A DNA stretch of 64,000 bases. It comes from Escherichia phage tuntematon. A model generated the notes under the pieces. It did not search any database, was not told where the DNA came from, and saw nothing but the letters and a program-made list of their open reading frames with translations. Positions within the stretch are counted from its first letter, which is position 1. Each line of letters starts with the position of its first letter. This document shows, piece by piece, positions 1,957 to 19,607 of the stretch. The stretch is taken from sequence record NC_052660.1. One strand, written 5' to 3'. The translations under genes were made by a program, and so were the position numbers.

Positions 1957-3771
1957 ATGAAAGATTTGTACCAAGATGTTTTTTCTTTTTTAGATCGCAC
2001 TTCAGAAACATACACTAGAGAGAATGCAAACAAACCTTCCCACCTCGTTAACACGCATAGGGATCTCTTGGCGGGGATTTTAAGCAAACATATGGCAATG
2101 ATACAGATACTGCCAAAAAACTTGTCAGAATGGCATACAGAAGGTTTTGGACATATTCACGACTTGGATTATCTGCTCTCTCCTCTTACAAACTGTTGTC
2201 TTGTTAATTATCAAGATATGTTAGAAAATGGTTTTAAGATCGGTGCTGCACAGATAGAAAAACCAAAATCTATTGGAGTAGCTACCACAGTGCTAACTCA
2301 AATCATCCAAGCTGTTGCCTCCAGTCAGTATGGAGGTCAAACGTGTGCACACATTGATAAAGGGCTTAGTCCTTATGTTGAAGCTAGTTTCCTTAAAAAC
2401 ATGGAGATAACCAAACGTCGCTACGGTTGTTATGCAAGGAAAGAAGCCCTAGAAATGACAGAACAAGATGTATATGATGCTATGCAAACTCTCTTGTATC
2501 AGGTTAATACTTTAATGAGTGTTAATGGACAATCTCCTTTTATTACAATCAGTATGGGTCTGGATACCTCTGTTTTTGGCAGAATGATCACAGCCAACTA
2601 TCTTAAAGTGCATAGTAACGGTCTAGGCAAAGATCATGTAACGCCTGTATTCCCTAAAGTTATTTTCTTTTTACAAGAAGGTGTTAACATGAAACCTAGT
2701 GATCCTAACTATGACCTTAAGCAACAAGCTTTGGCATGTTGTGCTGATCGTATTTATCCAGATTTTATTTCTGTTCCTTTGAACAAAGAAGTTACGGGAT
2801 CAGCAGATGGTACTGTTACGAGTATGGGTTGTCGTTCCTTTTTGTCGTACTATGCCACCGAACAAGGAGAAAAATATGATGGACGATTCAACCTTGGAGT
2901 AGTTTCTATCAACTTGCCTCTGATTGCTGCGGAAGCGAGAAGTAAAGGAGAATCTTTCACCTACCTCCTTAATAAACATATGGAGATAGCCTACGATGCT
3001 CACATGCTACGTGTAAACCGTATTAGACATACCAAAGCATCTGAAAACCCTATTCTTTTCATGGAAGGGGCTTTAGCGCGTTTAAATGCCAATGATGAAA
3101 TTGGTGTTTTGTTTGAAGATGGTTATGCTTCTATTAGTATTGGTTATGTAGGTCTTGCCGAAGCTTTGGAAATCCTTTATCCAGAAGAAAAAGATAAAAA
3201 GGAACTTGGTAAAAGCATTCTGCAACATATGAAAGATGTGTGTGCTGTGTTTAAAGAACGATCTAAGCTGGCGTTTAGTCTCTATGGAACTCCAGCAGAA
3301 TCCTTGTGCTATAAGTTTGCAACAGCTTTAAATAAAAAATACCCAGGTTTGGTAGAAAGAGACTATCTTACTAACTCTTTTCATCAACCTGTATGGTTGG
3401 TAACAAATCCTTTTGAAAAATGGGATTATGAAGCAGGTTTTGCACAGATTAGTAATGGTGGTAACATAAGTTATGTCGAAACACCAAACTTAAAGAATAA
3501 CTTAGAAGCTTTGGAGACTTTAGTAGACTACGCTTATGAACATATTCACTATTTTGGTATTAATCAGCCCGTGGATCAATGCTTTAAGTGTGGTTTTCAT
3601 GGAGAATTTAAGGCAACGGCTAAAGGGTTTGAGTGTCCTGATTGTGGCAACCATGAAGAAGAAACTATTTCTGTAGTTAGACGTGTATCAGGGTATCTTT
3701 CTGCCCCTAATTCACGGCCTTACAACAAAGGTAAAATGCAGGAAGTTTTGCAAAGGGAGAAACATCTTTGA
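1957..3771 (+). CDS. nrdD: anaerobic ribonucleoside-triphosphate reductase (class III RNR)
   Basis: 604 aa; C-terminal Cys4 zinc ribbon (CFKCGF...CPDCGN) followed by a glycyl-radical motif (RRVSGYLS), both typical of NrdD. Confidence 0.9.
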   Translation: MKDLYQDVFSFLDRTSETYTRENANKPSHLVNTHRDLLAGILSKHMAMIQILPKNLSEWHTEGFGHIHDLDYLLSPLTNCCLVNYQDMLENGFKIGAAQIEKPKSIGVATTVLTQIIQAVASSQYGGQTCAHIDKGLSPYVEASFLKNMEITKRRYGCYARKEALEMTEQDVYDAMQTLLYQVNTLMSVNGQSPFITISMGLDTSVFGRMITANYLKVHSNGLGKDHVTPVFPKVIFFLQEGVNMKPSDPNYDLKQQALACCADRIYPDFISVPLNKEVTGSADGTVTSMGCRSFLSYYATEQGEKYDGRFNLGVVSINLPLIAAEARSKGESFTYLLNKHMEIAYDAHMLRVNRIRHTKASENPILFMEGALARLNANDEIGVLFEDGYASISIGYVGLAEALEILYPEEKDKKELGKSILQHMKDVCAVFKERSKLAFSLYGTPAESLCYKFATALNKKYPGLVERDYLTNSFHQPVWLVTNPFEKWDYEAGFAQISNGGNISYVETPNLKNNLEALETLVDYAYEHIHYFGINQPVDQCFKCGFHGEFKATAKGFECPDCGNHEEETISVVRRVSGYLSAPNSRPYNKGKMQEVLQREKHL

Positions 3772-4238
3772 ATTTTGCAGGATATGAACCTGTAGATCTT
3801 ATTAATGGTGAGGGAGTTAGGTGCTCCCTCTGGGTTAGTGGTTGTAGCCACGGTTGTCGTGGCTGTTTTAACCAAAAAGCCTGGTCTTATTCTTATGGGA
3901 AACCGTTCACTCACGAAAATGTAGAGCAAGTTTTAAAAGATTTGTCAAGACCGTTTGTAAAAGGTTTAACAATTTTAGGAGGAGAGCCATTAGATCCACA
4001 GAATATTTACAATGTTAAAAACCTTATAGAAAAGGTTAGAGACGTTTATGGGTCAAGCAAAGATATAATGGTGTATACAGGGTATACTTTTGAGGAAGTG
4101 CCTTTGTATATTAAAAATCTTGTTGACATTATTGTAGACGGAAAGTATGAAATAAACAATCCAACTACAAAACCTTTCAGAGGGTCAGATAATCAAAGAT
4201 TATGGACCAAAACGGCAAGTGGTTGGCAATCAGATTAA
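3768..4238 (+). CDS. nrdG: anaerobic RNR activating protein (radical SAM)
   Basis: 156 aa; N-terminal RCSLWVSGCSHGCRGCFNQKAW closely matches the NrdG CxxxCxxC cluster; TTG start overlaps the nrdD stop (TTGA). Confidence 0.9.
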   Translation: MNFAGYEPVDLINGEGVRCSLWVSGCSHGCRGCFNQKAWSYSYGKPFTHENVEQVLKDLSRPFVKGLTILGGEPLDPQNIYNVKNLIEKVRDVYGSSKDIMVYTGYTFEEVPLYIKNLVDIIVDGKYEINNPTTKPFRGSDNQRLWTKTASGWQSD

Positions 4239-5065: not shown

Positions 5066-5722
5066 ATGACTATTAAACATATCTCTTTTGATGTATGGAA
5101 CACACTGATCACAGCAAACTCCAATTACGCAGACATGCGAGCCTGGACTATCGCAAAATATGGAGATATTACGGAAGTTGAAGCAAGAGCAGCTTATAAA
5201 AAAATCAAAAAGGAACTGGATAATGCAGCACTTCAAGGCAAAGCCGAGTGTGCAGCATACGCCTGGGAAAGACTCGGTTCTGAACTTGGGATAACGCCTT
5301 GGAAGTCTGCAAAGCTTCGTTTCGAGTGTGAACAGTGGTTCCTTAAGTTTCCACCACACGTAGCCGTAGATCTGCCGATGTACTTGCTGTATCTTTCTGG
5401 GCGTTATGATTTGAGTATTAAGAGCAATACCAACTTCATATCAGGGGATATTCTGCGTCGTGCTTGTAAGTTTGATAGTTGGAATTGTTTTGAGTTCACC
5501 CATTTCTCGGATGAAGCTTTACTTTGTAAACCAGATCCGCGATTCTTTGCTCGCACGCTCACGTATTCTCCGATCCCTCTGTTAGGGCACGAAGTATTGC
5601 ACGTAGGCGATAGTGAAGAATATGATGGAAAATGTGTTGACTTAGGATTTAACTTCTGTCATATTAAGAACCCTAACGACTTACTAGAGAAACTTAAAAG
5701 AGGAGAAATTGTAAATGCGTAA
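5066..5722 (+). CDS. HAD-superfamily hydrolase/phosphatase
   Basis: N-terminal ISFDVWNTLI (HAD motif I, haloacid-dehalogenase-like DxxxTL variant), KPDPRFF (motif III lysine) and HVGDSEEYDG (motif IV). Confidence 0.65.
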   Translation: MTIKHISFDVWNTLITANSNYADMRAWTIAKYGDITEVEARAAYKKIKKELDNAALQGKAECAAYAWERLGSELGITPWKSAKLRFECEQWFLKFPPHVAVDLPMYLLYLSGRYDLSIKSNTNFISGDILRRACKFDSWNCFEFTHFSDEALLCKPDPRFFARTLTYSPIPLLGHEVLHVGDSEEYDGKCVDLGFNFCHIKNPNDLLEKLKRGEIVNA

Positions 5723-6542
5723 TCAAACTCAAATTTTTGCAAATAAATTTGATGACCTGGAAACTGCTACTTTTGATATCCAAGATTATTCAAAATTGAA
5801 ATTTGGTAGTAACCAAGCCGCGCGTCGTATGGGTAAAGAATTGGCACTTCAGTTTTTTGCTCAAGTGGCAATGAAACATATTGGGGAACAATTTGTTATC
5901 ATTCCTTCTCCTTACAACCATGTGCATAATGCTGCAACAATGATGACAGATCATTTTATTAATTACTTTAATATGTTGCAAGCACAATATGATCAAGGTC
6001 GTTCAGCAGAACTGGACATTATTCATCGTAAAGTTAGCTATATCAACGATTATGGTTTCTTGGATAAAGCTAGTCGTAAGAAACTTATTGATGGGGATAC
6101 ATTCTACTGTAACAAAGAATTCTGGGGGGATAAGAAGCTTGTATTCATTGATGATGTAAATATCACTGGAACGCATGAAGACAAACTGATTGAGATCCTT
6201 AATGAAAATCAAGTTAAAAATGATGTTTACTTCCTGTATTTTGCAAAATATGAAGGTAATCAAGCAGATACCGAAGCTAAACTGAATTTTAACTACATTA
6301 ATACACCGGAAGCGTTTGTTAAAATGATTAATGAAGAACGTGATGCACAGTGTCTTGTTCGTCCTATTAAGTATCTTATGGGCCAAAATCATGAAGACTT
6401 CAAAATCATTCTTAGCCAATTGCCACATTACTATGTAGAGCAACTTTTCTTTGGATGCTTGGGAGAAGGTTACAACCGAATTTCAAAGTATGCTGAAAAC
6501 TTTGAATTCTTGGATCGTTACACAAAACAACACATTCTGTAA
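5715..6542 (+). CDS. type I phosphoribosyltransferase (PRPP-binding) family protein
   Basis: KLVFIDDVNITGTHE fits the classical PRPP-binding signature (hydrophobic run, DD, then TG-T); start overlaps the upstream stop. Confidence 0.65.
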   Translation: MRNQTQIFANKFDDLETATFDIQDYSKLKFGSNQAARRMGKELALQFFAQVAMKHIGEQFVIIPSPYNHVHNAATMMTDHFINYFNMLQAQYDQGRSAELDIIHRKVSYINDYGFLDKASRKKLIDGDTFYCNKEFWGDKKLVFIDDVNITGTHEDKLIEILNENQVKNDVYFLYFAKYEGNQADTEAKLNFNYINTPEAFVKMINEERDAQCLVRPIKYLMGQNHEDFKIILSQLPHYYVEQLFFGCLGEGYNRISKYAENFEFLDRYTKQHIL

Positions 6543-6555
6543 TAAGGAGCTAAAA

Positions 6556-7029
6556 ATGCTTAAAATGAAAACAGGTAATCTTATTGATGCCGCTAAAGCA
6601 GGTGAAGTAACTGTTATTGCTCATTGTTGCAACTGTATGTGTAATATGGGGGCAGGTATTGCCCCACAAATCAAACGAGCATTTCCTTACGCATATGCAG
6701 CAGACTTAGACACAATGGCTGGTGATCAAAGTAAACTAGGTTGTTTTAGTTTAGGGGTGCCAGACGAACAATCAGACCCTTTGGTATATAATCTATACGG
6801 GCAATACCGTTACGGATACAATGCTAAAGGTCGTCAGTTGGACTATGATGCACTTTACGATGCACTAATAGCTATGGCTAACGATTTGCTTCTCCGTGAC
6901 CAAAAATGTAAGATCGGCTTACCTATGATTGGCGCTGGACATGCTGGAGGTAATTGGGCTATCATCCAAGTGATGATTGAAGAAACTTTAGTAAAAACAG
7001 GTCACGATGTGACTATTTATAAACTTTAA
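6556..7029 (+). CDS. macro domain (ADP-ribose-binding/processing) protein
   Basis: VIAHCCNCMCNMGAGIAPQIKRAFP resembles the macro-domain N-x6-GGGV-x2-AI motif; C-terminal IGLPMIGAGHAGGNW resembles the second glycine-rich phosphate-binding loop; AAGGAG RBS before the ATG at 6556. Confidence 0.6.
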   Translation: MLKMKTGNLIDAAKAGEVTVIAHCCNCMCNMGAGIAPQIKRAFPYAYAADLDTMAGDQSKLGCFSLGVPDEQSDPLVYNLYGQYRYGYNAKGRQLDYDALYDALIAMANDLLLRDQKCKIGLPMIGAGHAGGNWAIIQVMIEETLVKTGHDVTIYKL

Positions 7030-7342: not shown

Positions 7343-8317
7343 ATGCAACTTGGTTTCCCAATTATTGATGTAGTTGTTTTAGTTGGTATTTTAGCATTGT
7401 CTATTGGTATTGATTTCTTTGGTCACAAAGAAAATAAAGAAATTTCATTCAAATCCGCAGTTGGTTGGTCGATCTTTTGGATTGGTGTATCATTAGCTTA
7501 TTATGGTTTTGTATACTTCCAACATGGTGCCGATTTTGCTAACTTGTTTTTAAGTGGATATGTGTTGGAAAAATCTTTGTCGGTAGATAACTTGGTAGTA
7601 TTTGTAGCAGTATTCGCAAGTTTTGGTATTAAAAGCACACACTTGCAGCACAAGATTCTACTTTGGGGTATTGCAGGTGCGATTGTCTTCCGAGGTGTGT
7701 TTGTAGCAGTAGGCACTTACTTGTTAAGTTTGGGCTGGTATGTTAATATCTTCTTCGGTGCGGTCATCCTTTTCTGTGCAGCTAAAATGGTATTTGCTGG
7801 AGATAATGACGCAGAAGTTGATTACTCTAAACACTGGGCTACCCGTATTGTTCGTAAACTGTTCCCTGTATCTAATAAAATGGATGGGGAGAAGTTCTTC
7901 ACAATCGAAAATGGTGTTCGTGTAGCAACTCCAGCTTTGGTTTGCGTATTCGTGATGGAAATGGTGGATGTAATCTTTGCAGTAGATTCGGTTCCAGCGG
8001 TGATCGCAGTGACACAAGAACCCCTGCTTGTATTCTCTTCGATGTTATGTGCAATCTTAGGTCTACGTGCTCTGTTCTTTGTTCTTAGTGTCGCACTGAA
8101 GTATCTGGTTCACTTGGAGAAAGCAGTTATTGTGGTTCTGGTGTTTGTAGGCGTTAAACTGATGTATCACCCGTTTGCAGAAACATTGCATGAGAAAATC
8201 AGTTTCCTGCCAGCACATATTGATCCAACTGTTAGTATGTATATCGTGCTTGGTACTTTGGCCCTTGGTGTTATTGCAAGCTTTATCTTCCCTGAAAAAG
8301 AAGAAGCTACTGTTTAA
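7343..8317 (+). CDS. terC: TerC-family integral membrane protein
   Basis: 324 aa polytopic membrane protein carrying both TerC hallmark motifs: EKSLSVDN and FAVDSVPAVIAVTQEP...AILGLRALFF. Confidence 0.88.
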   Translation: MQLGFPIIDVVVLVGILALSIGIDFFGHKENKEISFKSAVGWSIFWIGVSLAYYGFVYFQHGADFANLFLSGYVLEKSLSVDNLVVFVAVFASFGIKSTHLQHKILLWGIAGAIVFRGVFVAVGTYLLSLGWYVNIFFGAVILFCAAKMVFAGDNDAEVDYSKHWATRIVRKLFPVSNKMDGEKFFTIENGVRVATPALVCVFVMEMVDVIFAVDSVPAVIAVTQEPLLVFSSMLCAILGLRALFFVLSVALKYLVHLEKAVIVVLVFVGVKLMYHPFAETLHEKISFLPAHIDPTVSMYIVLGTLALGVIASFIFPEKEEATV

Positions 8318-8323
8318 TAAATG

Positions 8324-8348
8324 AGCCTCCTTCGGGAGGCTATTTTAT
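8324..8348 (+). terminator. rho-independent terminator after the TerC-like gene
   Basis: AGCCTCC-ttcg-GGAGGCT hairpin followed by ATTTTAT. Confidence 0.6.
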
Positions 8349-9942: not shown

Positions 9943-10533
9943 ATGCATACCGAGAGAGACTTGCAACTCTTGTGGTGGGAAGTGATGCAGGAAATAAAAG
10001 AAGATTTTCCTGTTTACTACAACATGTTACGTGAAGCAGGATATAAAGCTTGTGTTAGAAACAAAGTGAATAACTCTTTCGGTTGGTGCAACTACCGAGA
10101 TAAAATTGTTGTTGTAAATTGGCACTTGCATAAGAACTCCACAAGAGATATGATCGTGGATACAATGAAGCACGAAATTGCTCATGCTATTGATGGTTGT
10201 ATGGGTAAGTTTAGTAGGCACGGTGCTCATTGGCAAAAACTGGCAGCAGAATTAGGGGCTAATCCTAAAGCCACTTCCAAAGAGCCGTTGAACCACGAAT
10301 ATAAATATGTTCTTGTTCTGGTAGATAGGTTTGCGACAAGATGTGTTAGAGGTTATAATCGTAAACCTAATCGCATGTACCCAGGTAAGCAACCTAATAT
10401 GTGGTTGAAATCAGATAAAGAAGGGACCGAAGGAAAATTATGGTTGTATAAATGGGACGATTGGGTTAAAGTAGCTAAAGAGTACGGTGTTTCACCATAT
10501 ATAAGAGATGCAGAAGAGGAGAATGAAGAATGA
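9943..10533 (+). CDS. SprT-like zinc metallopeptidase-domain protein
   Basis: HEIAHAIDG...HGAHWQKLAAELG matches the SprT-like HExxH...HG..W pattern. Confidence 0.6.
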   Translation: MHTERDLQLLWWEVMQEIKEDFPVYYNMLREAGYKACVRNKVNNSFGWCNYRDKIVVVNWHLHKNSTRDMIVDTMKHEIAHAIDGCMGKFSRHGAHWQKLAAELGANPKATSKEPLNHEYKYVLVLVDRFATRCVRGYNRKPNRMYPGKQPNMWLKSDKEGTEGKLWLYKWDDWVKVAKEYGVSPYIRDAEEENEE

Positions 10534-11642
10534 CAAGTCCATTTTTAAAAGCAGCTACTGGTGGTCAGAAGAAGCCTGAAATGAGCGTATTTGCTGCAAC
10601 AACAGATGCAAGTAAATCTGTATTCGCTCCAAGCGTGTTAGATGCCAGTCCTGTTTATGCACCAGCGGCACCGCAAGAAGTTCCAGTTTTGCCTTCTATG
10701 ACCCGACAAGAGATCGAAGAGATTGGGGCAGAGGCAGGAACAACCTTGCGTTCCTTGAATGCCGAGGTATTAAAACATCAACGTAGTAATCAAGGCGATC
10801 AGATGAGTGAACGACTCACAGCTTTGATTAAACAGGCAAAACAACTTGATCCAAACTCTATTAAACAAAGCAAGGGTATTACTAAACTCATTAAAAAAGT
10901 TATGGGTATGAAAGAAGACCTGTTTGGGGAGTTTGATAATGTTAATAACCGTATTGAAGAGTTGGTAAAGAACCTTCAAATGGATATTCGCAAAGAAGAA
11001 GATTCCTTGGTATATCTTGAAAAGCTACATCAAGCTATTGGACAGTATGCTGCAAGTTTGAACCGAGATATGCAGCTTCTAACAGCAACCTATGAAAAAG
11101 AAGAACAAGCTTTGGCTGCTCTTCCAGAAGATGCAGTAGAACAGCGACAAGTGATCCGAGATACTTTGGATCTTCTGGAGATTCGTATTGCAGATTTAAA
11201 AGCATTGCGCCTACTGTGTGTCCAAATGGGACCGCGTGTACAAGGTATGCAAAAAGTTTCTGCAAGCTTAATGCGATCTGCGCGTAACATAGTAAATAAT
11301 GTTATTCCTGCTTACTCTGCTAACTTCTCAATGTATATCGAGAGCTTACGTCAAATGAAAGCAGCAGAGACGCAGAATAACGTTCTTGATGAATTTAACC
11401 TGGCAATTAAACTGGGTAGCGATCTTGCCACACAGAATCAGATCGAAGCAGCAGCACTGGCTAACCGTCAAGTGTTGGATATTGAAACTCTGCGTCACGA
11501 TCAGGAAAACTTGGTTAAGATGTTGGAAGAAACTAACCGCATCAATACGGAAGCCCGTGCTGCTCGTGTTGATTATATTAATGAAGTTCAATCTCTGGAA
11601 GACGGGATGGTAGCTGCTGTGAAACGAGGGCTTGGTAAATGA
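10530..11642 (+). CDS. coiled-coil protein, possible TelA-like (toxic anion resistance) protein
   Basis: 370 aa, largely helical with a low-complexity N-terminus; size and position between TerC and TerD genes fit TelA, but no diagnostic motif could be confirmed by eye. Confidence 0.3.
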   Translation: MTSPFLKAATGGQKKPEMSVFAATTDASKSVFAPSVLDASPVYAPAAPQEVPVLPSMTRQEIEEIGAEAGTTLRSLNAEVLKHQRSNQGDQMSERLTALIKQAKQLDPNSIKQSKGITKLIKKVMGMKEDLFGEFDNVNNRIEELVKNLQMDIRKEEDSLVYLEKLHQAIGQYAASLNRDMQLLTATYEKEEQALAALPEDAVEQRQVIRDTLDLLEIRIADLKALRLLCVQMGPRVQGMQKVSASLMRSARNIVNNVIPAYSANFSMYIESLRQMKAAETQNNVLDEFNLAIKLGSDLATQNQIEAAALANRQVLDIETLRHDQENLVKMLEETNRINTEARAARVDYINEVQSLEDGMVAAVKRGLGK

Positions 11643-12006: not shown

Positions 12007-12397
12007 TCCAACAGGTATTCTTTTAAAACTTACAGTAACAGACCCTACTCTTTTCACCAAGTTAGCAAGTGGTGAAGTTTATGAAGTAATGAAAGATGAT
12101 GACGGTTGGTGTTATCTTTGTGGCTACTTCCTCTGTGATGCAGAAGAGTTAGAATCCATTGTAACTAAAGGTTTTTATGAAGAACCAGGGTTCCGTGTGG
12201 AAACTACGCAGAAACCTGATACCATTACGTTGACTCGACAGGAACTGATCACAATCATTGAAGATGCTTTTATTGATGGCTGGAATACACAAGATAATGA
12301 CTGGGGTGGACCCGAAGCTTTTCTGGAACATCATAAAGCTTATGGAGAATTTTGTGAAACCACTGTAGCTCTTGATAATCTGAAGGAGGGTTTGTAA
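11999..12397 (+). CDS. hypothetical protein
   Basis: 132 aa ORF with GGAGGAAG RBS. Confidence 0.45.
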   Translation: MYNPTGILLKLTVTDPTLFTKLASGEVYEVMKDDDGWCYLCGYFLCDAEELESIVTKGFYEEPGFRVETTQKPDTITLTRQELITIIEDAFIDGWNTQDNDWGGPEAFLEHHKAYGEFCETTVALDNLKEGL

Positions 12398-12960
12398 TGG
12401 GTTGTTTTAGTTTTTTGTGCAAAGAATCGGGCAAAGCTGCCCTTTCTACTTCTTTCGACGGATCGCCTTGCTACCTCTTTCTTTTGAAGGACGGTGTTGT
12501 TATTGAAGAGATGTATGGCAACTATGATAGTTATGGTTGTGTTTTCTCTGGAAAGGAGGATGAAAATGGTGTTCGTGAACGATTTGAATGGGCTATGGAT
12601 TGGAGTAAGGTTTGTGATTTGATGCATTCCTCAAATCCAAGGGACGGTATCGCTATGGTGCTGGAAGAGTACTTTACAGGTGAAATCCCTACAGAACAAT
12701 CTGACGGAGATCCTAACCAAGGTTGGGGTGATGGTGAAGAAGATCCAGATTGTTTTTTCAGCACAGAAAAGAATAAGTTTAAACGTGTTGACAACCCTTA
12801 TCACAAAGTGCATAATACTCTCATTGAAACAGAAGATGACAAGATGGAAATTGAAGAAGATGATCCTCTTGTAACACTTCCTATAAGTGAGTTACAAAAG
12901 ATCACTAAGGAAGCTTACGATTTGGGCTTCAAAATTGGTAGAGGAGGTATGCGTGTTTAG
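12397..12960 (+). CDS. hypothetical protein
   Basis: 187 aa ORF; acidic C-terminal half. Confidence 0.45.
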   Translation: MGCFSFLCKESGKAALSTSFDGSPCYLFLLKDGVVIEEMYGNYDSYGCVFSGKEDENGVRERFEWAMDWSKVCDLMHSSNPRDGIAMVLEEYFTGEIPTEQSDGDPNQGWGDGEEDPDCFFSTEKNKFKRVDNPYHKVHNTLIETEDDKMEIEEDDPLVTLPISELQKITKEAYDLGFKIGRGGMRV

Positions 12961-13231
12961 ATTCAATATTCAAGAAGAAAAAAGTCAGGATTTACCTATT
13001 GCTTTCGAAGATCTTGACGTAGGGGCCACATTCATGTATTATGATGCCTATGAAGACGCAGGGTTGGATACCTACCGTAACTTGGTGTTCATTAAAAATT
13101 CCACAAACAGTGCGATCTGTATTAATGGATCACTAGCACAACGAGGCTATACTCATTGCATCCCACCAGATACAAATATGGTGGAAGTAGATTTAGAAGT
13201 TACCAATATTACACTTAAGAAGGAGAAATAA
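12953..13231 (+). CDS. small protein, paralog of 14253-14522
   Basis: GTG at 12953 after GGAGG; shares DLDVGxTF...GLD and a C-terminal LEVTxITLKK with the ORF at 14253. Confidence 0.45.
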   Translation: MFRFNIQEEKSQDLPIAFEDLDVGATFMYYDAYEDAGLDTYRNLVFIKNSTNSAICINGSLAQRGYTHCIPPDTNMVEVDLEVTNITLKKEK

Positions 13232-13232
13232 T

Positions 13233-14027
13233 ATGTCCGAGAAAATCAGCCTGAAAAAACGTCAAGAAAACCTTGCTTTCTCTCTGAAAAAGAATAAGAA
13301 CCTGAATGAAGGTAAGATTGTTCTTCGTGTAGCATGTGCTCTAGATATTTCTGGTAGTATGCATGGTCTATATTCTAGTGGGGTAGTGAGTGATTTTGTA
13401 GGTAAACTGCTTCCTTTTGGTATGCTGTTCGACGATAATCAACAAATTGATATGTGGGCCTTCAATACGAGTTCCCAAGAGCTTACTCCAGCAACAGCAG
13501 ATGTTTACGATGACTATGTTGGTAAATGTATGCGTAATGTTCGTATCGGAGGTGGAACAAATTACGCCCCTGTAATGGCAGATATCTACGATGAGTATTT
13601 TGGCACTGTTACCAAATATATTACCACTAAACAAGTGGTACAAGAGGAGGCTCCAAAGAAAGGCTTCTTTAATCGTCTGCTTGGTAAAACTGAAACAGTA
13701 TCTGTAGAGCGTGAAAAGGTTGTAGCTGTATCTGAACCAGGTGCTGACGTTACCCCTGGTGTTGTATTCTTCCAGACAGACGGTGAGAATGGTGATCCTA
13801 GTGCTGTTCGTCGTCTTATTGAAGAGAATAAGAATAAACCTATTTATTGGTTCATGGTTGGCGTTGGTAATGAGAAGTTTGGCTTCCTGAAAGAACTGGC
13901 AAATGCTTATGATAATGTTGGTTTTATTGGCATTAAAGATTTAGACTTGACAGATTCAGAGCTTTATGACAAACTCTTATCTGAAGAGTTCGGAGAGTGG
14001 GTTGTTAAAGTAGGTGCTAAAAAATGA
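13233..14027 (+). CDS. von Willebrand factor A domain protein (TerF/TerY-like)
   Basis: MIDAS motif VACALDISGSM and FFQTDGENGD; N-terminus MSEKISLKK...FSLKK resembles TerD-family N-termini. Confidence 0.75.
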   Translation: MSEKISLKKRQENLAFSLKKNKNLNEGKIVLRVACALDISGSMHGLYSSGVVSDFVGKLLPFGMLFDDNQQIDMWAFNTSSQELTPATADVYDDYVGKCMRNVRIGGGTNYAPVMADIYDEYFGTVTKYITTKQVVQEEAPKKGFFNRLLGKTETVSVEREKVVAVSEPGADVTPGVVFFQTDGENGDPSAVRRLIEENKNKPIYWFMVGVGNEKFGFLKELANAYDNVGFIGIKDLDLTDSELYDKLLSEEFGEWVVKVGAKK

Positions 14028-14272
14028 TCGACGAGCTTGCCTCTCAAGTCATAGAAAATTATTGGCGCGAGAGAGAAGCTTTCATTATGCGCAGTCTCAA
14101 AGAGTATTTCATTGGGACTGTGCGAATGGAAGATATTGTAAGTAGAGTAGAGATTCATGTATGGCCCGATTATGAAGAATGGGTTGACAAAGAAAATGAA
14201 AATGCTATAATTCTTCGTATATACAAACCGGAGATAACATTAGGAGGAAGAAGTGTTAAACTTCGAAATTGA
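14024..14272 (+). CDS. hypothetical small protein
   Basis: 82 aa ORF; start overlaps the upstream stop. Confidence 0.4.
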   Translation: MIDELASQVIENYWREREAFIMRSLKEYFIGTVRMEDIVSRVEIHVWPDYEEWVDKENENAIILRIYKPEITLGGRSVKLRN

Positions 14273-14522
14273 TGAGCAAAAAGTAAATAAACGATGCCTT
14301 ACCATTAAAGATTTGGATGTAGGAGATACTTTCGTCTATGAAAATGCATTTGACGAAAATGGTTTAGACCTTAGTGAAATCATTGTTTATTTAAAAGTAG
14401 ATGATGGGGAAAATGATTATTCTGCTGTAGAACTAAACCATCATGCACAATTAGTATCAATCCAAAACACATCTAAGCTTTTGGAAGTAGAATTGACTGT
14501 AACTGGTATTACACTTAAATAA
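14253..14522 (+). CDS. small protein, paralog of 12953-13231
   Basis: GTG at 14253 after AGGAGG; same conserved blocks as the ORF at 12953. Confidence 0.45.
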   Translation: MLNFEIDEQKVNKRCLTIKDLDVGDTFVYENAFDENGLDLSEIIVYLKVDDGENDYSAVELNHHAQLVSIQNTSKLLEVELTVTGITLK

Positions 14523-14537
14523 TAGAGGAGACAAAAG

Positions 14538-15140
14538 ATGACTGATAAAATTTCCCTGAAAAAAGGCTCTAGCGAAAAAATTTCCCTGAAGAAGGTTGCT
14601 CCGGCTCTGAAAGAACTGCGCCTGGAATTCTCTTGGAAGTCTGATTCTAAACTGGATCTGGATGTAAGTGCACTGGTTTGTCGTCACAATGCCGCTGGCA
14701 ATCCTGAAATGCTGTCTGCACGTCATCTTGTTTGCTATGCTAACAAGTTTGATCCTGAACGTTCTACCTTCGCTGGTGACGATGTTCGTGATGGCACTGG
14801 CAGCATGGAGCAGATTGATATTACTCTGGCTAAAATCTCTCCTGATGCACAAGAGATTGCCTTTGTTCTGACCATTGATGATGATACAGGTCTGAAACGT
14901 TTTGGTCATGCTTCTGAAGGTATGCTTAAAATCTTCGACTCCGAGCGCAATGTGGAAATTCTGGATTTTGACTTCCTGGCTCCTGAAGTAGCTGGTAACA
15001 CAATCTGCCACGTGGCTTCCTTGGTTCGTGAAGATGGAGAATGGAAGCTGAAAGCATATGGTGTAGGTAAAGCTGGTCTGGATATTTGTGATGTGGTGAT
15101 GGCCTTCGGTGGTAAAAAAGAATGGTATGAATGTCCGTAA
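14538..15140 (+). CDS. terD: TerD-family stress protein
   Basis: 200 aa; N-terminal duplicated KISLKKG..KISLKK and acidic GDDVRDGTGSMEQIDITLAKISPDAQEIAFVLTI segment match the TerD domain. Confidence 0.85.
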   Translation: MTDKISLKKGSSEKISLKKVAPALKELRLEFSWKSDSKLDLDVSALVCRHNAAGNPEMLSARHLVCYANKFDPERSTFAGDDVRDGTGSMEQIDITLAKISPDAQEIAFVLTIDDDTGLKRFGHASEGMLKIFDSERNVEILDFDFLAPEVAGNTICHVASLVREDGEWKLKAYGVGKAGLDICDVVMAFGGKKEWYECP

Positions 15141-15158
15141 TAATTAACAAATGATTTT

Positions 15159-15178
15159 GAGGGGGAGAAATCCCCCTC
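15159..15178 (+). terminator. stem-loop after the TerD-like gene (terminator-like, weak U-tract)
   Basis: GAGGGGGA-gaaa-TCCCCCTC perfect 8-bp hairpin immediately after the stop. Confidence 0.45.
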
Positions 15179-15207
15179 TTGCAATAAAGCCTCTATCGTG
15201 TTATACT
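15179..15207 (+). promoter_or_regulatory. sigma70-like promoter
   Basis: TTGCAA, 17-nt spacer, TATACT, followed by AGGAGG RBS. Confidence 0.5.
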
Positions 15208-15239
15208 AGAAATTCGTTAACTTAAAAAGGAGGCAAAAT

Positions 15240-15761
15240 TTGCTGATAAAAAACTTTGTAACAGTTGCGTTACTATCCTTAACTGCTTTTACATTTACAC
15301 CTGTTGTGGCGAAAGCCGAAGCTGCAAACGTAAAAACCGCTAAAGTAGTTCACAAATGTACAAAGCAATATAATGATAAAATTCTATTAGCTTGTGCAAT
15401 TTACGCAGAAGGTCGCGGTCTGGGTAAAAAAGGAATGAATGCCGTTGGGAATGTGGTAATCAACAGAAGAAATGATACCTACTTCCCTAACACAGTCAGA
15501 GGAGTCTTGTTCCAGAAAGGGCAATTCTCATATGCGAAAACTTTTAACGTAACAGAGAAAGATAAGTGGCAGGAAGCAAAAGCAATAGCGGAGCGTTTAC
15601 TTTATTTAGAGAAACATTTTCCTGAATTGCGGTCTGTTTTAGATGTTACTAAAGGTGCTCTATACTTCAAGAAACGGAATATAAGAACACACTGGGAACG
15701 TGATATGCGTCTTGTTTATCGAGATAAAGTGCATGGTTTCTATCTACCAAAGGGGAGTTAA
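15240..15761 (+). CDS. secreted cell-wall hydrolase (SleB/CwlJ-like Hydrolase_2 family)
   Basis: TTG start after AGGAGG; N-terminal signal peptide; CAIYAEGRG...NVVINRR...FQKGQFSY resembles the SleB-type domain. Confidence 0.5.
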   Translation: MLIKNFVTVALLSLTAFTFTPVVAKAEAANVKTAKVVHKCTKQYNDKILLACAIYAEGRGLGKKGMNAVGNVVINRRNDTYFPNTVRGVLFQKGQFSYAKTFNVTEKDKWQEAKAIAERLLYLEKHFPELRSVLDVTKGALYFKKRNIRTHWERDMRLVYRDKVHGFYLPKGS

Positions 15762-16462: not shown

Positions 16463-17026
16463 ATGATTTATTATATTACTCCCTATCTGACAGGAAATAT
16501 CGGCAAGGCTATCAATGAAGCCATTGCCGTTCTTCCAGATGATAGTTGGGTGTGTTTAAGAGATACCGATACAATGTTCCTCCTACCTGATCAACCATCT
16601 ATGCTTGAAGAGCTTGTTATGTCAAACCCGCCTTTTGATGTAATAGGTGCAACTTGTAACAGGTTAGGCAGTGGTTATCAGCTTTTCTCTAACCAAATTA
16701 ACGATGATCCAGATATTCTAAACCATATAGAATATGCTAAGATTGCAAGAGAATATCATAAAGTAAATGTTGAAGAAGTTCCTTTCGGAACACCTCTGGC
16801 AGGTTTCTTTTTGCTTTTTAGAAAATCATTGTGGAATGAAATTCCTTTTGAAGAAAAATCTATCCAATTCGACTTAATTTTCTCTCGCACTTTACATGAA
16901 AAAGGAAAGAGGTTAGGATTGATGCGGGGAATGTATCTGTTTCACATTTACAGATTAGGTCAAACAAATCCTCAACGGTCTATACATCATTTATTACACT
17001 GTCATGATCACAGTAAAACTATTTAG
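16463..17026 (+). CDS. hypothetical protein, possibly GT-A-like glycosyltransferase
   Basis: 187 aa; CLRDTD could be a DxD-type motif; weak. Confidence 0.3.
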   Translation: MIYYITPYLTGNIGKAINEAIAVLPDDSWVCLRDTDTMFLLPDQPSMLEELVMSNPPFDVIGATCNRLGSGYQLFSNQINDDPDILNHIEYAKIAREYHKVNVEEVPFGTPLAGFFLLFRKSLWNEIPFEEKSIQFDLIFSRTLHEKGKRLGLMRGMYLFHIYRLGQTNPQRSIHHLLHCHDHSKTI

Positions 17027-17034
17027 GAGAGAAA

Positions 17035-17718
17035 ATGGAAAATATTAAAATCGGAGTGGGTGTTATCACTGTAGGTGTCCGTCCACTTAAAGACTACCTT
17101 GTAACAGATCCACGTGCAGATTTTCGAGTATTCAACGATCCAGATCGTAAAGGTGTAGCTTATGCCAGGAATGAACTTATGCACCAGTTTTATGAAGAAG
17201 GTTATGATTATTGGTTTATTTTTGACGACGATTGCTACCCAGTCATGGAGGGATGGGAAACATATTTTGTAGATCAAGCTGTCTCTGGAGGATGGGATTT
17301 CTTTGGTATGCCGGAGTACTTCAAAGATAAAGTTGTTGGAAGCAAAGGAGAAGTTATTCTCTGGGAACTTGCAATGTGTCAATTTGCAATGTATTCTCGT
17401 GCTGTTGTTGAGAAGATGGGTTATTTCCGTCCTTACACTCACGGTTATGGTTTTGAAGATGCTGAATGGGGACACCGTTTGCAAGCTGCTGGTTTGAATC
17501 ATGGTATTCAGGCAACACCTTGTCCACTTCGTATCATGGCTTATATCCACCCAGACGATGTTTTTGGAAACAATCCTATGCCTTTTGCTAACCTGACAAA
17601 AGAAGAGAAAGAGGCTGCTATTGGGATTAACTGGGAAGAATATAAAGCATCTTTAGAGGATATTAAAAATGGGAAAATCCGAATTTCCTATGAGGAGGCA
17701 CTAGCACATGTCAAATAA
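17035..17718 (+). CDS. glycosyltransferase (GT-A fold, DxD type)
   Basis: WFIFDDDCYP and later YGFEDAEWGHRL are typical of family-2-like nucleotide-sugar transferases. Confidence 0.55.
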   Translation: MENIKIGVGVITVGVRPLKDYLVTDPRADFRVFNDPDRKGVAYARNELMHQFYEEGYDYWFIFDDDCYPVMEGWETYFVDQAVSGGWDFFGMPEYFKDKVVGSKGEVILWELAMCQFAMYSRAVVEKMGYFRPYTHGYGFEDAEWGHRLQAAGLNHGIQATPCPLRIMAYIHPDDVFGNNPMPFANLTKEEKEAAIGINWEEYKASLEDIKNGKIRISYEEALAHVK

Positions 17719-18655
17719 AAAATGGTCTAAACTAAAAATTGATGCAAAACCTCACAGCGGTTGTGACTATCATCGTATTGTTATACCATTTAACAACAAT
17801 AATATTCAACCTAAGAAAGATGTTGTTGTGTTTAACCGTATCCACTCTAAAGGTGCAGAATACGTTTTATCTTTGAAACGTCAAGGTGTTAAGGTTGTTG
17901 TAGACTTAGATGATTTTTACCAACTTAATCCAGAACATTATTTAGCAAGCCTATACGAGTCAAACACTCATGCTATTGTAGCTATGGTTAAGCTTGCTGA
18001 TGTGGTTATTGTGACTACGGAATATTTGGCATATAAGATCCGTCACTTAAATAGGAATGTTGTTGTGATCCGAAATGCACTTCCTTTTGATAGCGGACAA
18101 TTCACTTTGTCAAATGATCGTTCATCCGGTACCCCTGTTGTATGGGCTGGCGGTGCTAGTCACGAACCAGACTTACGACTAGTCTCTAATACTTTCGATG
18201 ATGAACTTCTTACTATTGCGGGATATGAAGCATCACAAAGCATCACGGGACAAGAGTGGATTAAGATTCGCAGAAATTTACCAAATGCCAAATATAAAGC
18301 CGCTGTAAAAGATTTAGATAATTACATGAGTGTTTACGAAAGTCATGCTATTGCTATAGCTCCTTTGGTAGATAATGATTTTAATAATTGTAAAAGTAAT
18401 CTCAAAATCCTGGAAGCTGGAGCAAAAGGTATTCCAATTGTTTGTTCTAAGGTATTACCTTATTTTAACCCTGTAGATGCTCGCGCTGTTGCTTACGCAG
18501 AGAATAAAGCAGAATGGCATTACGAAATTGTTAAGCTTCTTCGCAATCCAAACTATCGGGAAGATCGTGGCTTGTTCTTGGCTGAACATGTTCGAACACA
18601 TTATAATCTGGCAGATGCAAACGAGTTGCGACGCCAGGTTATTGAAAGTTTGTAG
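17708..18655 (+). CDS. glycosyltransferase-like protein (GT-B-like), tandem paralog A
   Basis: 315 aa; C-terminal KSNLKILEAGAKGIPIV resembles the GT1 E-x7-E region; clear similarity to the next ORF. Confidence 0.5.
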   Translation: MSNKKWSKLKIDAKPHSGCDYHRIVIPFNNNNIQPKKDVVVFNRIHSKGAEYVLSLKRQGVKVVVDLDDFYQLNPEHYLASLYESNTHAIVAMVKLADVVIVTTEYLAYKIRHLNRNVVVIRNALPFDSGQFTLSNDRSSGTPVVWAGGASHEPDLRLVSNTFDDELLTIAGYEASQSITGQEWIKIRRNLPNAKYKAAVKDLDNYMSVYESHAIAIAPLVDNDFNNCKSNLKILEAGAKGIPIVCSKVLPYFNPVDARAVAYAENKAEWHYEIVKLLRNPNYREDRGLFLAEHVRTHYNLADANELRRQVIESL

Positions 18656-18662
18656 GTGAAGT

Positions 18663-19607
18663 ATGGGACAAATAATTCTTGACAATCGTAACGGAATCAA
18701 TTATAGTGTCTGCGATTTCCATAGGGTAGTGCTGCCTTACTCAAGGCAGTTCTCTTCACAACCTAAACACAACGTTTTCGTTTTTAACGGAGTGCCAACA
18801 AAAGGTAAAGAGGGCTTTTTAGCCCTTAAAAACCTAGGCTTTAAAATGGTTATGGATTTGGATGACTCTTTAGTTATTCCAAAAGGACACATGTTAGAAG
18901 GTATTTTTGAATCAGGTATTCGTGAACATTTAAAATGGTTTTTAGAGCACAGCGATCTTGTTACAACTACGACACCTGCTTTGCAAGTTGAACTTTCACA
19001 ATACAATGATAATGTGCACATAATCCCTAATGGTCTTCCTTACGATGAAGGTCAATTTGTGTTGACCCGTGATCGCTACTCCAAAACTCCATTAGTCTGG
19101 GCTGGAAGTGAAACACATAAACAAGATTTGGCTATCTTGCCCGATTTTGGTAAAAATCTTACAATATGTGGTTTTCGTAGGGATTCTGAAGTTTTAAGTA
19201 GTCGTGAATGGTCTGTGATCAGAGAAAATGTAGCACCAACTTGTGTTTATGAAGGTGTAAGACCATATGCCAACTACATGGAATCTTACGATGGTCATCA
19301 AATCAGTCTTGCGCCATTGCTTGATAACGTGTTTAATAATGCAAAAAGCAATCTTAAAATTCTTGAGGCAGGTGCTAAGGGTTTACCTTTGATCTGTTCT
19401 CCTCGTGAGAATTATCATACACAAGAGTTTAAAGATTTGTTATTCTTTGCTGAAACACCTTCCGAGTGGAAAGATATTACGGAATACTTATTAAGTGCTC
19501 CCGATGTTTGCATGGAGAAAGGATTAGCATTAGCTAAGTATGTCAGGACTCATTATCACATTGATGTGTTGAATGAGCGTCGTAGACTTTTATTTGAGGA
19601 GCTATAA
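18663..19607 (+). CDS. glycosyltransferase-like protein (GT-B-like), tandem paralog B
   Basis: 314 aa; shares CDFHRVVLP, VMDLDD, PLVWAG and NNAKSNLKILEAGAKGLPLICS blocks with the preceding ORF. Confidence 0.5.
   Translation: MGQIILDNRNGINYSVCDFHRVVLPYSRQFSSQPKHNVFVFNGVPTKGKEGFLALKNLGFKMVMDLDDSLVIPKGHMLEGIFESGIREHLKWFLEHSDLVTTTTPALQVELSQYNDNVHIIPNGLPYDEGQFVLTRDRYSKTPLVWAGSETHKQDLAILPDFGKNLTICGFRRDSEVLSSREWSVIRENVAPTCVYEGVRPYANYMESYDGHQISLAPLLDNVFNNAKSNLKILEAGAKGLPLICSPRENYHTQEFKDLLFFAETPSEWKDITEYLLSAPDVCMEKGLALAKYVRTHYHIDVLNERRRLLFEEL

Follow-up and report, generated by a model that had tools for sequence, protein, structure and literature searches.

Two small genes of Escherichia phage tuntematon (NC_052660.1), each positioned directly before a gene of a phage-borne Ter system, were analyzed in a 64,000-nucleotide stretch of this genome (the window). 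They encode old paralogs of a phage-restricted protein family, which is an optional accessory of the vWA/TerD module. Tentatively, we consider the small proteins to be low-abundance adaptors, assembly factors or regulators of this module. New here is the lineage-restricted accessory family; the Ter system itself is of a known kind. A sequence search with the region 12397-15300 showed 99% identity to many phAPEC8-like coliphages (Phapecoctavirus, Stephanstirmvirinae). The two small genes, named small1 and small2, and the open reading frames (ORFs) around them are as follows:

12397-12960: 187-aa ORF (phrog_14928), upstream of small1
12953-13231, plus strand: small1, 92 aa, GTG start, phrog_11278
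13233-14027, plus strand: vWA-TerF-like protein, 264 aa, with a KISLKK...FSLKK double motif and the metal ion-dependent adhesion site (MIDAS) DISGS at residues 38-42
14024-14272, plus strand: 82-aa ORF (orf82, phrog_22387), between vWA and small2, overlapping small2 by 20 nt
14253-14522, plus strand: small2, 89 aa, GTG start, phrog_11278
14538-15140, plus strand: TerD-domain protein, 200 aa
14544-14563 and 14574-14593, plus strand: two copies of a 20-nt repeat in TerD, 90% identical, period 30, encoding (D/E)KISLK(K)

The two small proteins aligned over their full length with 34% identity (BLASTP, E=2e-14). In a profile search, both matched phrog_11278, an uncharacterised phage family, from end to end (E=4.2e-51 for small1 and 7e-45 for small2). 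An original prediction, made from the sequence without database searches, had called the two ORFs paralogs and proposed pairwise alignment as a check, and the significant similarity bears it out. The same two coding sequences are annotated in the GenBank records of near-identical phages. As had also been read from the sequence, both genes start with GTG after a Shine-Dalgarno AGGAGG (12942-12947 for small1, 14242-14247 for small2), with a 5-nt spacer in between. The C-terminal LEVT[NG]ITLKK ascribed to both proteins does not hold for small2, which ends in LTVTGITLK. The Ter genes start 1 nt (vWA, ATG at 13233) and 15 nt (TerD, ATG at 14538) past the small gene stops, within the predicted 20 nt, and their proteins begin with MSEKISLKK and MTDKISLKK, respectively.

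The prediction of a duplicated two-gene unit held, with a correction. Each small gene lies directly before a Ter gene, but the two units are not adjacent copies, with the 82-aa ORF intervening. At the DNA level, their likeness was limited to the junctions (13182-13259 vs 14482-14564, ~76-77%), where it is explained by the conserved residues and the Shine-Dalgarno sequence. Recent events at the junctions, whether DNA duplication or gene conversion, were rejected for this reason; by direct reading of the sequence, only five of the nine shared junction residues use the same codon. The duplication that gave rise to small1 and small2 is thus old, not recent. The 82-aa ORF between vWA and small2 was seen in Phapecoctavirus alone, and its protein had only 60% identity between the window and phage phiWec181. 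No similarity to the neighbouring ORFs was found, and the idea that it is left over from duplication of an upstream gene was rejected, because it resembled neither the 187-aa nor a 132-aa ORF.

The small family was searched for by an exhaustive profile search against 1.84 billion representatives, which returned only about 15 genuine homologs of ~87-93 aa. A k-mer-based search recovered close relatives only. Profile matches to 2-5-kb repetitive proteins fell on heterogeneous domains (He_PIG, DUF11, ankyrin); they were taken as summed short-motif matches and rejected as homology. Every homolog with a readable context adjoined, or sat between, genes for vWA-TerF-like and TerD proteins. For gene order, 16 related loci (L numbers below) were scanned with hidden Markov models (HMMs) of the small family, vWA and TerD. 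The small gene was always directly upstream of vWA or TerD in the loci examined, with gaps of -1 to 34 nt. In Phapecoctavirus the order was small-vWA-orf80/82-small-TerD. Justusliebigvirus and Klebsiella phage 05F01 had one copy before vWA (small-vWA-TerD), and an uncultured lineage (L005-L009, L016) had one copy before TerD (vWA-small-TerD). The conserved gene-neighbourhood signal of the small family is therefore genuine.

The repeated one-to-one pairing, on which the original prediction had based a dedicated partnership of the small proteins as chaperones, regulators or anti-factors, was present in Phapecoctavirus and is confined to it; support for this interpretation is thus partial. Elsewhere, one copy or none was found, and the four arrangements of the 16 loci did not show a strict co-occurrence of one small gene per Ter gene. 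Since one copy or none is enough outside Phapecoctavirus, any target of the small proteins is more likely common to both Ter proteins, or is the whole module. A natural presence/absence pair was seen in Klebsiella phage 05F01 and an uncultured relative. Both carry a homologous 228/239-aa gene upstream of vWA (L004, 4226-4945; L015, 3257-3943), and only in 05F01 is a small gene placed between this gene and vWA.

Evolution is faster in the small genes than in vWA or TerD. Their ratio of nonsynonymous to synonymous substitution rates (dN/dS) was about 0.17-0.45, with dS saturated and non-synonymous change well below synonymous change. In a neighbour-joining tree, the pre-vWA copies grouped together, as did the Phapecoctavirus pre-TerD copies, and the copies from the uncultured lineage formed a third group. 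No matches to the small proteins were found in Pfam, NCBIfam, PADLOC or PDB sequences. Conservation in the family alignment included both termini: an N-terminal M-[FL]-x-F with invariant M1 and F4, and a C-terminal V-x-L-x-V-[TS]-x-I-x-[LV]-K pattern.

A monomer model of small2, computed by AlphaFold2 from a 17-sequence alignment, reached a predicted local distance difference test (pLDDT) score of 85.8 and a predicted template modelling score of 0.74. A 7-sequence alignment gave a pLDDT of 47 and was set aside. In this prediction, the protein forms a small beta-barrel that loosely resembles SH3, with strands at residues 15-16, 26-29, 46-49, 57-60, 67-69 and 76-79 and a helix at 30-36. Residues 1-14 and 80-89 were outside any DSSP strand in the model, despite the conserved termini. 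No significant structural relative was found. The SH3-like small-barrel folds considered were L2 SH3-like, FeoA/DtxR-C, Tudor and KOW; the scores against small barrels, with FeoA among the weak matches, were at noise level.

Expression signals in this region include the following:

12788-12816, plus strand: sigma-70-like promoter site, TTGACA-17-CATAAT (11/12), 137 nt upstream of small1, within the 187-aa ORF
14184-14211, plus strand: perfect sigma-70 consensus with extended -10, TTGACA-16-TATAAT and upstream TG, 42 nt upstream of small2, inside orf82
15159-15178, plus strand: G+C-rich stem-loop GAGGGGGA-GAAA-TCCCCCTC, just past the TerD stop, read from the sequence

L010 and L002 have the promoter-like site of small1 at an equal distance. 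L003, without the 187-aa ORF, had an 11/12 site 32 nt before small1, in intergenic sequence. The site before small2 was the only perfect sigma-70 match in the window (1 found vs 0.07 expected), and it was kept at 12/12 in two divergent phapecoctaviruses, L003 and L010. The vWA-small-TerD lineage had a conserved 10/12 site ~58 nt upstream of its small gene. These conserved promoter-like sites argue for co-transcription of the small genes with the downstream Ter genes, and with the perfect one, small2-TerD would be transcribed very strongly as an early unit. The stem-loop is a possible end of this transcription unit, with a weak T tract and no call by the terminator scan. The 187-aa ORF that harbours the first site encodes a Cys-rich start (MGCFSFLC...) and a strongly acidic C-terminal half. 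It is kept in Justusliebigvirus (Phi92_gp175) and absent in phiWec181, which has an intergenic promoter-like site in its place.

Translation of the paired genes is probably linked as well. The last codons of small1 (AAG GAG AAA TAA) hold the vWA Shine-Dalgarno sequence, and the pre-vWA copies end in ...GGAGAAATAA-T-ATG, which places this sequence in their last codons too. The conserved C-terminal (K/E/G)EK of the pre-vWA copies is explained by this overlap. Codon usage suggests different protein amounts. Of the 19 leucine codons of TerD in the window, 16 were CTG; TerD of the other lineages had 6-18 CTG codons, whereas the small genes had 0-1. This bias suggests a much larger output of TerD. 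Its GC content was 0.45, compared to 0.31-0.40 in the neighbours. The strong leaning of TerD to E. coli-preferred codons recurs in the TerD genes of most related phages, but not in the small genes. Together, these features suggest that TerD is among the highly expressed proteins of the phage. The GTG start was rejected as a conserved low-expression device, most orthologs having ATG.

The vWA and TerD proteins were assigned to their families by profile matches. The vWA ORF matched PF10138 with 130.1 bits (cut-off 29.4, E=1.6e-37). In an alignment of its phage homologs, D38, S40 and S42 of the MIDAS DxSxS were invariant, as were K4, S6, L7, K9, R10, S17, L18 and K20 at the N-terminus. The TerD ORF matched PF02342 over residues 5-179 with 98.9 bits (cut-off 25.3, E=3.2e-28), and the solved structures 2KXT (E=1.5e-15) and 3IBZ (E=2.9e-14). 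Its tandem KISLKK duplication, predicted at the DNA level, was recovered as the 20-nt repeat, 90% identical between the copies. The N-terminus ISLKKGSSEKISLKK aligned column by column with VSLSKGG--NVSLSK and VSLSKGG--NVSLTK of 2KXT and 3IBZ, which indicates that the tandem is the ancestral N-terminal hairpin of the domain. Standalone vWA-TerF-like proteins of Burkholderia, Caballeronia, Klebsiella-associated and metagenomic origin open in a similar way (ITLEKR..V.I.LEKR, KLSLEKR...KLSLEK), and the TerD HMM matched the first 30 residues of the L005 phage vWA protein (E=0.006). The shared ISLKK start is the standard N-terminal hairpin of the TerD and vWA families and by itself no sign of pairing. 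Its proposed value as a mark of the small-gene partnership was lost, as bacterial standalone members of the vWA-TerF-like family carry it in the absence of a neighbouring small gene.

In the mechanism that we propose, each small copy would be the first cistron of a sigma-70-driven two-gene unit, P-small1-vWA and P-small2-TerD. The small proteins would probably be less abundant than the Ter proteins, a stoichiometry suggested by codon usage. Most likely, they would then act as sub-stoichiometric adaptors, assembly factors or regulators touching vWA and/or TerD. Their conserved termini, unpaired in the monomer model, may mediate beta-strand contacts with the Ter proteins. One strand of the Ter hairpin is similar to the C-terminal ...I-[TS]-L-K of the small proteins. 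A narrower version holds that the barrels are dedicated adaptors, which recognise the [IV]SLKK hairpin of TerD and of TerF-type vWA by terminal beta-strand addition, and so control the assembly of the phage Ter proteins with, or apart from, the host Ter machinery. We regard this version as improbable; if true, the poorly understood Ter system would gain its first defined element of protein-protein recognition.

Several results weigh against a functional partnership. Three lineages (L013-L015) had vWA-TerD with no small-family member, even with HMMER filters off. In GenBank, 208 phage records had a vWA-TerF-like gene and only 125 had the small family, the latter counted with a single tblastn query at E<=0.01. 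The bacterial TelA-vWA-TerC-TerD operons L017 and L018 contained no small-family gene. The family is therefore dispensable for the Ter module. All carriers fell within one broad group of syntenic ~150-kb myophages, to which this optional family is restricted, and much of the adjacency could be explained by shared ancestry alone. No fusion of the small domain to a Ter protein was found in the exhaustive profile search. In the conserved GLD motif, N, S or A takes the place of the Asp in three members. The idea that this Asp is an obligatory MIDAS ligand was rejected on the same evidence. Other small ORFs beside vWA in the family-lacking phages (87, 110, 129 and 228 aa) were considered as counterparts and rejected, being unrelated to the family HMM with filters off.

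The main rival is inherited synteny in a single phage lineage. Here, the small genes would be ordinary fast-evolving early ORFs, for example for host takeover or unrelated functions, kept beside vWA and TerD by common descent alone. The carriers are indeed all related, with the common order TelA ... vWA ... TerD ... Hydrolase_2, and no other phage or bacterial Ter locus that was examined contained the small gene. The region is rich in other small lineage-specific ORFs, and around the 228/239-aa upstream gene the small gene comes (L004) or is missing (L015). However, the other small ORFs turn over between lineages, whereas the small family persists down to 21-28% identity. Where its position has changed, it still directly precedes vWA or TerD. 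It was duplicated with both copies retained in Phapecoctavirus, and occurred in no other context in the exhaustive profile search. We rate this synteny without partnership as a serious possibility, if a somewhat unlikely one.

Other roles for a small barrel fared less well. As a nucleic acid-binding regulator, an SH3/Tudor/KOW-like barrel could bind RNA or DNA and tune the downstream Ter gene, with the bicistronic mRNA or the strong promoter as a possible site of autoregulation; we hold this for doubtful, slightly more so than the hairpin adaptor. The chances are slimmer still for a FeoA-like partner, in which the barrel would be a cofactor for the metal-handling components of the Ter system: the presumably Ca2+-binding TerD, the MIDAS vWA and the TerC/Alx transporter. 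FeoA/FeoB does offer a parallel: a ~75-90-aa SH3-like barrel whose gene directly precedes that of a larger partner and is expressed together with it, in a system related to metals. There was no sequence relationship to FeoA, the structural likeness to small barrels was at noise level, and the partner proteins are unrelated. The FeoA Pfam model matched none of the 17 family members at E<=1, and no conserved metal-ligand residues were evident in the family alignment.

A split TerF, with the small protein as a TerD-derived fragment, was the least credible of all. In TerF, a TerD domain is N-terminal to vWA, and the small gene is likewise 5' of vWA. The phage vWA protein belongs to the same family that is linked to a TerD-type element in TerF, and it retains the TerD-like N-terminal hairpin. 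There is also a superficial likeness of DLDVG to the TerD motif DLDVSA, and of the C-terminal ITLKK to ISLKK. But the phage vWA protein is without a TerD domain and the upstream small protein is unrelated to TerD: profile-profile comparison of the small family (hhalign) gave probabilities of 0.3% against TerD and 0.2% against vWA. The predicted fold is a small barrel plus helix, not half a TerD sandwich. The split-TerF reading is effectively refuted by the hhalign result.

The window represents a Phapecoctavirus with a near-complete phage-borne Ter system. Besides vWA and TerD, the following genes belong to it or to its neighbourhood:

5066-5722, plus strand: HAD-like hydrolase, Ter system member
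5715-6542, plus strand: Ter-type PRTase (PRTase_3, PF15610), Ter system member
6451-7029, plus strand: Macro-like protein, Ter system member
7343-8317, plus strand: TerC/Alx, Ter system member
9943-10533, plus strand: SprT-like protein, Ter system member
10530-11642, plus strand: TelA, Ter system member
15240-15761: SleB-type hydrolase, downstream of TerD, Ter neighbourhood

The bacterial Ter 'hub' operon, reportedly described by Anantharaman, Iyer and Aravind in 2012 and taken up in PMC7824862 and PMC8386662, has the order TelA - vWA (TerF-C type) - TerC - TerD. The same four protein families come together in the window, with the same N-terminal double motif on vWA, and the PRTase and HAD genes associated with bacterial Ter are present. 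Unlike in the hub operon, small phage-specific ORFs are scattered among the genes of the phage version; the bacterial operons L017 and L018 had no small ORF, phrog_11278-like or other, among TelA, vWA, TerC and TerD. The HAD-like hydrolase, PRTase and Macro-like genes (5066-7029) lie directly upstream of TerC. Their position indicates that the phage also holds part of the 'nucleoside-like metabolite' Ter branch, beyond the TerC/TelA/vWA/TerD hub. Just past the TerC stop, at 8324-8341, a perfect 7-bp GC-rich hairpin (AGCCTCC-TTCG-GGAGGCT) gave a terminator-like call on both strands. In the uncultured vWA-small-TerD lineage, TerD is followed by a Band_7/SPFH-domain gene (L005, 2095-2574; L016, 5712-6632), which the window does not have. 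This gene is a further membrane-scaffold component attached to the phage Ter module.

Many bacteria, plasmids and large phages carry Ter systems (TerC, TerD, TelA, TerF-type vWA), which have been connected with stress tolerance and with resistance to phages and colicins. A phage-specific accessory with specific contacts to TerD and vWA would, if real, offer experimenters a way into how Ter complexes form and why virulent phages maintain these genes. Should the small genes be no more than syntenic ORFs, the locus is an ordinary case of a phage Ter cluster of the kind already reported. Such clusters are described in jumbo phages and 'related smaller tailed phages' (PMC7824862) and in Klebsiella phage phiKp34 (PMC8386662). 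For phage TerC, TerF-type vWA, TerD and TelA, superinfection exclusion or stress tolerance has been proposed (PMC7824862, PMC8386662). In contrast to the window, no small accessory family is mentioned in the available portions of these two reports (PMC7824862, PMC8386662). The Klebsiella-phage-type locus L014, with the same vWA-TerD-TerD-TelA layout as the reported clusters, was without the small family.

Among the records ~99% identical to E. coli phapecoctaviruses in this region, some are named Campylobacter phage B15/A150/A110a, Acinetobacter phage vB_AbaM_ABPW7 and Klebsiella phage ZCKP1, among others; the host names on these records look doubtful. Elsewhere in the window, an anaerobic ribonucleotide reductase NrdD (604 aa) and a radical-SAM activase (156 aa) are encoded within 1957-4238. 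Two adjacent ~315-aa paralogs (17708-18655 and 18663-19607), annotated as glycosyltransferases in related records, have common motifs such as NN[CA]KSNLKILEAGAKG. They are preceded by two more glycosyltransferase-annotated genes (16463-17718), and the paralog pair represents a tandem duplication in a glycosylation cassette.

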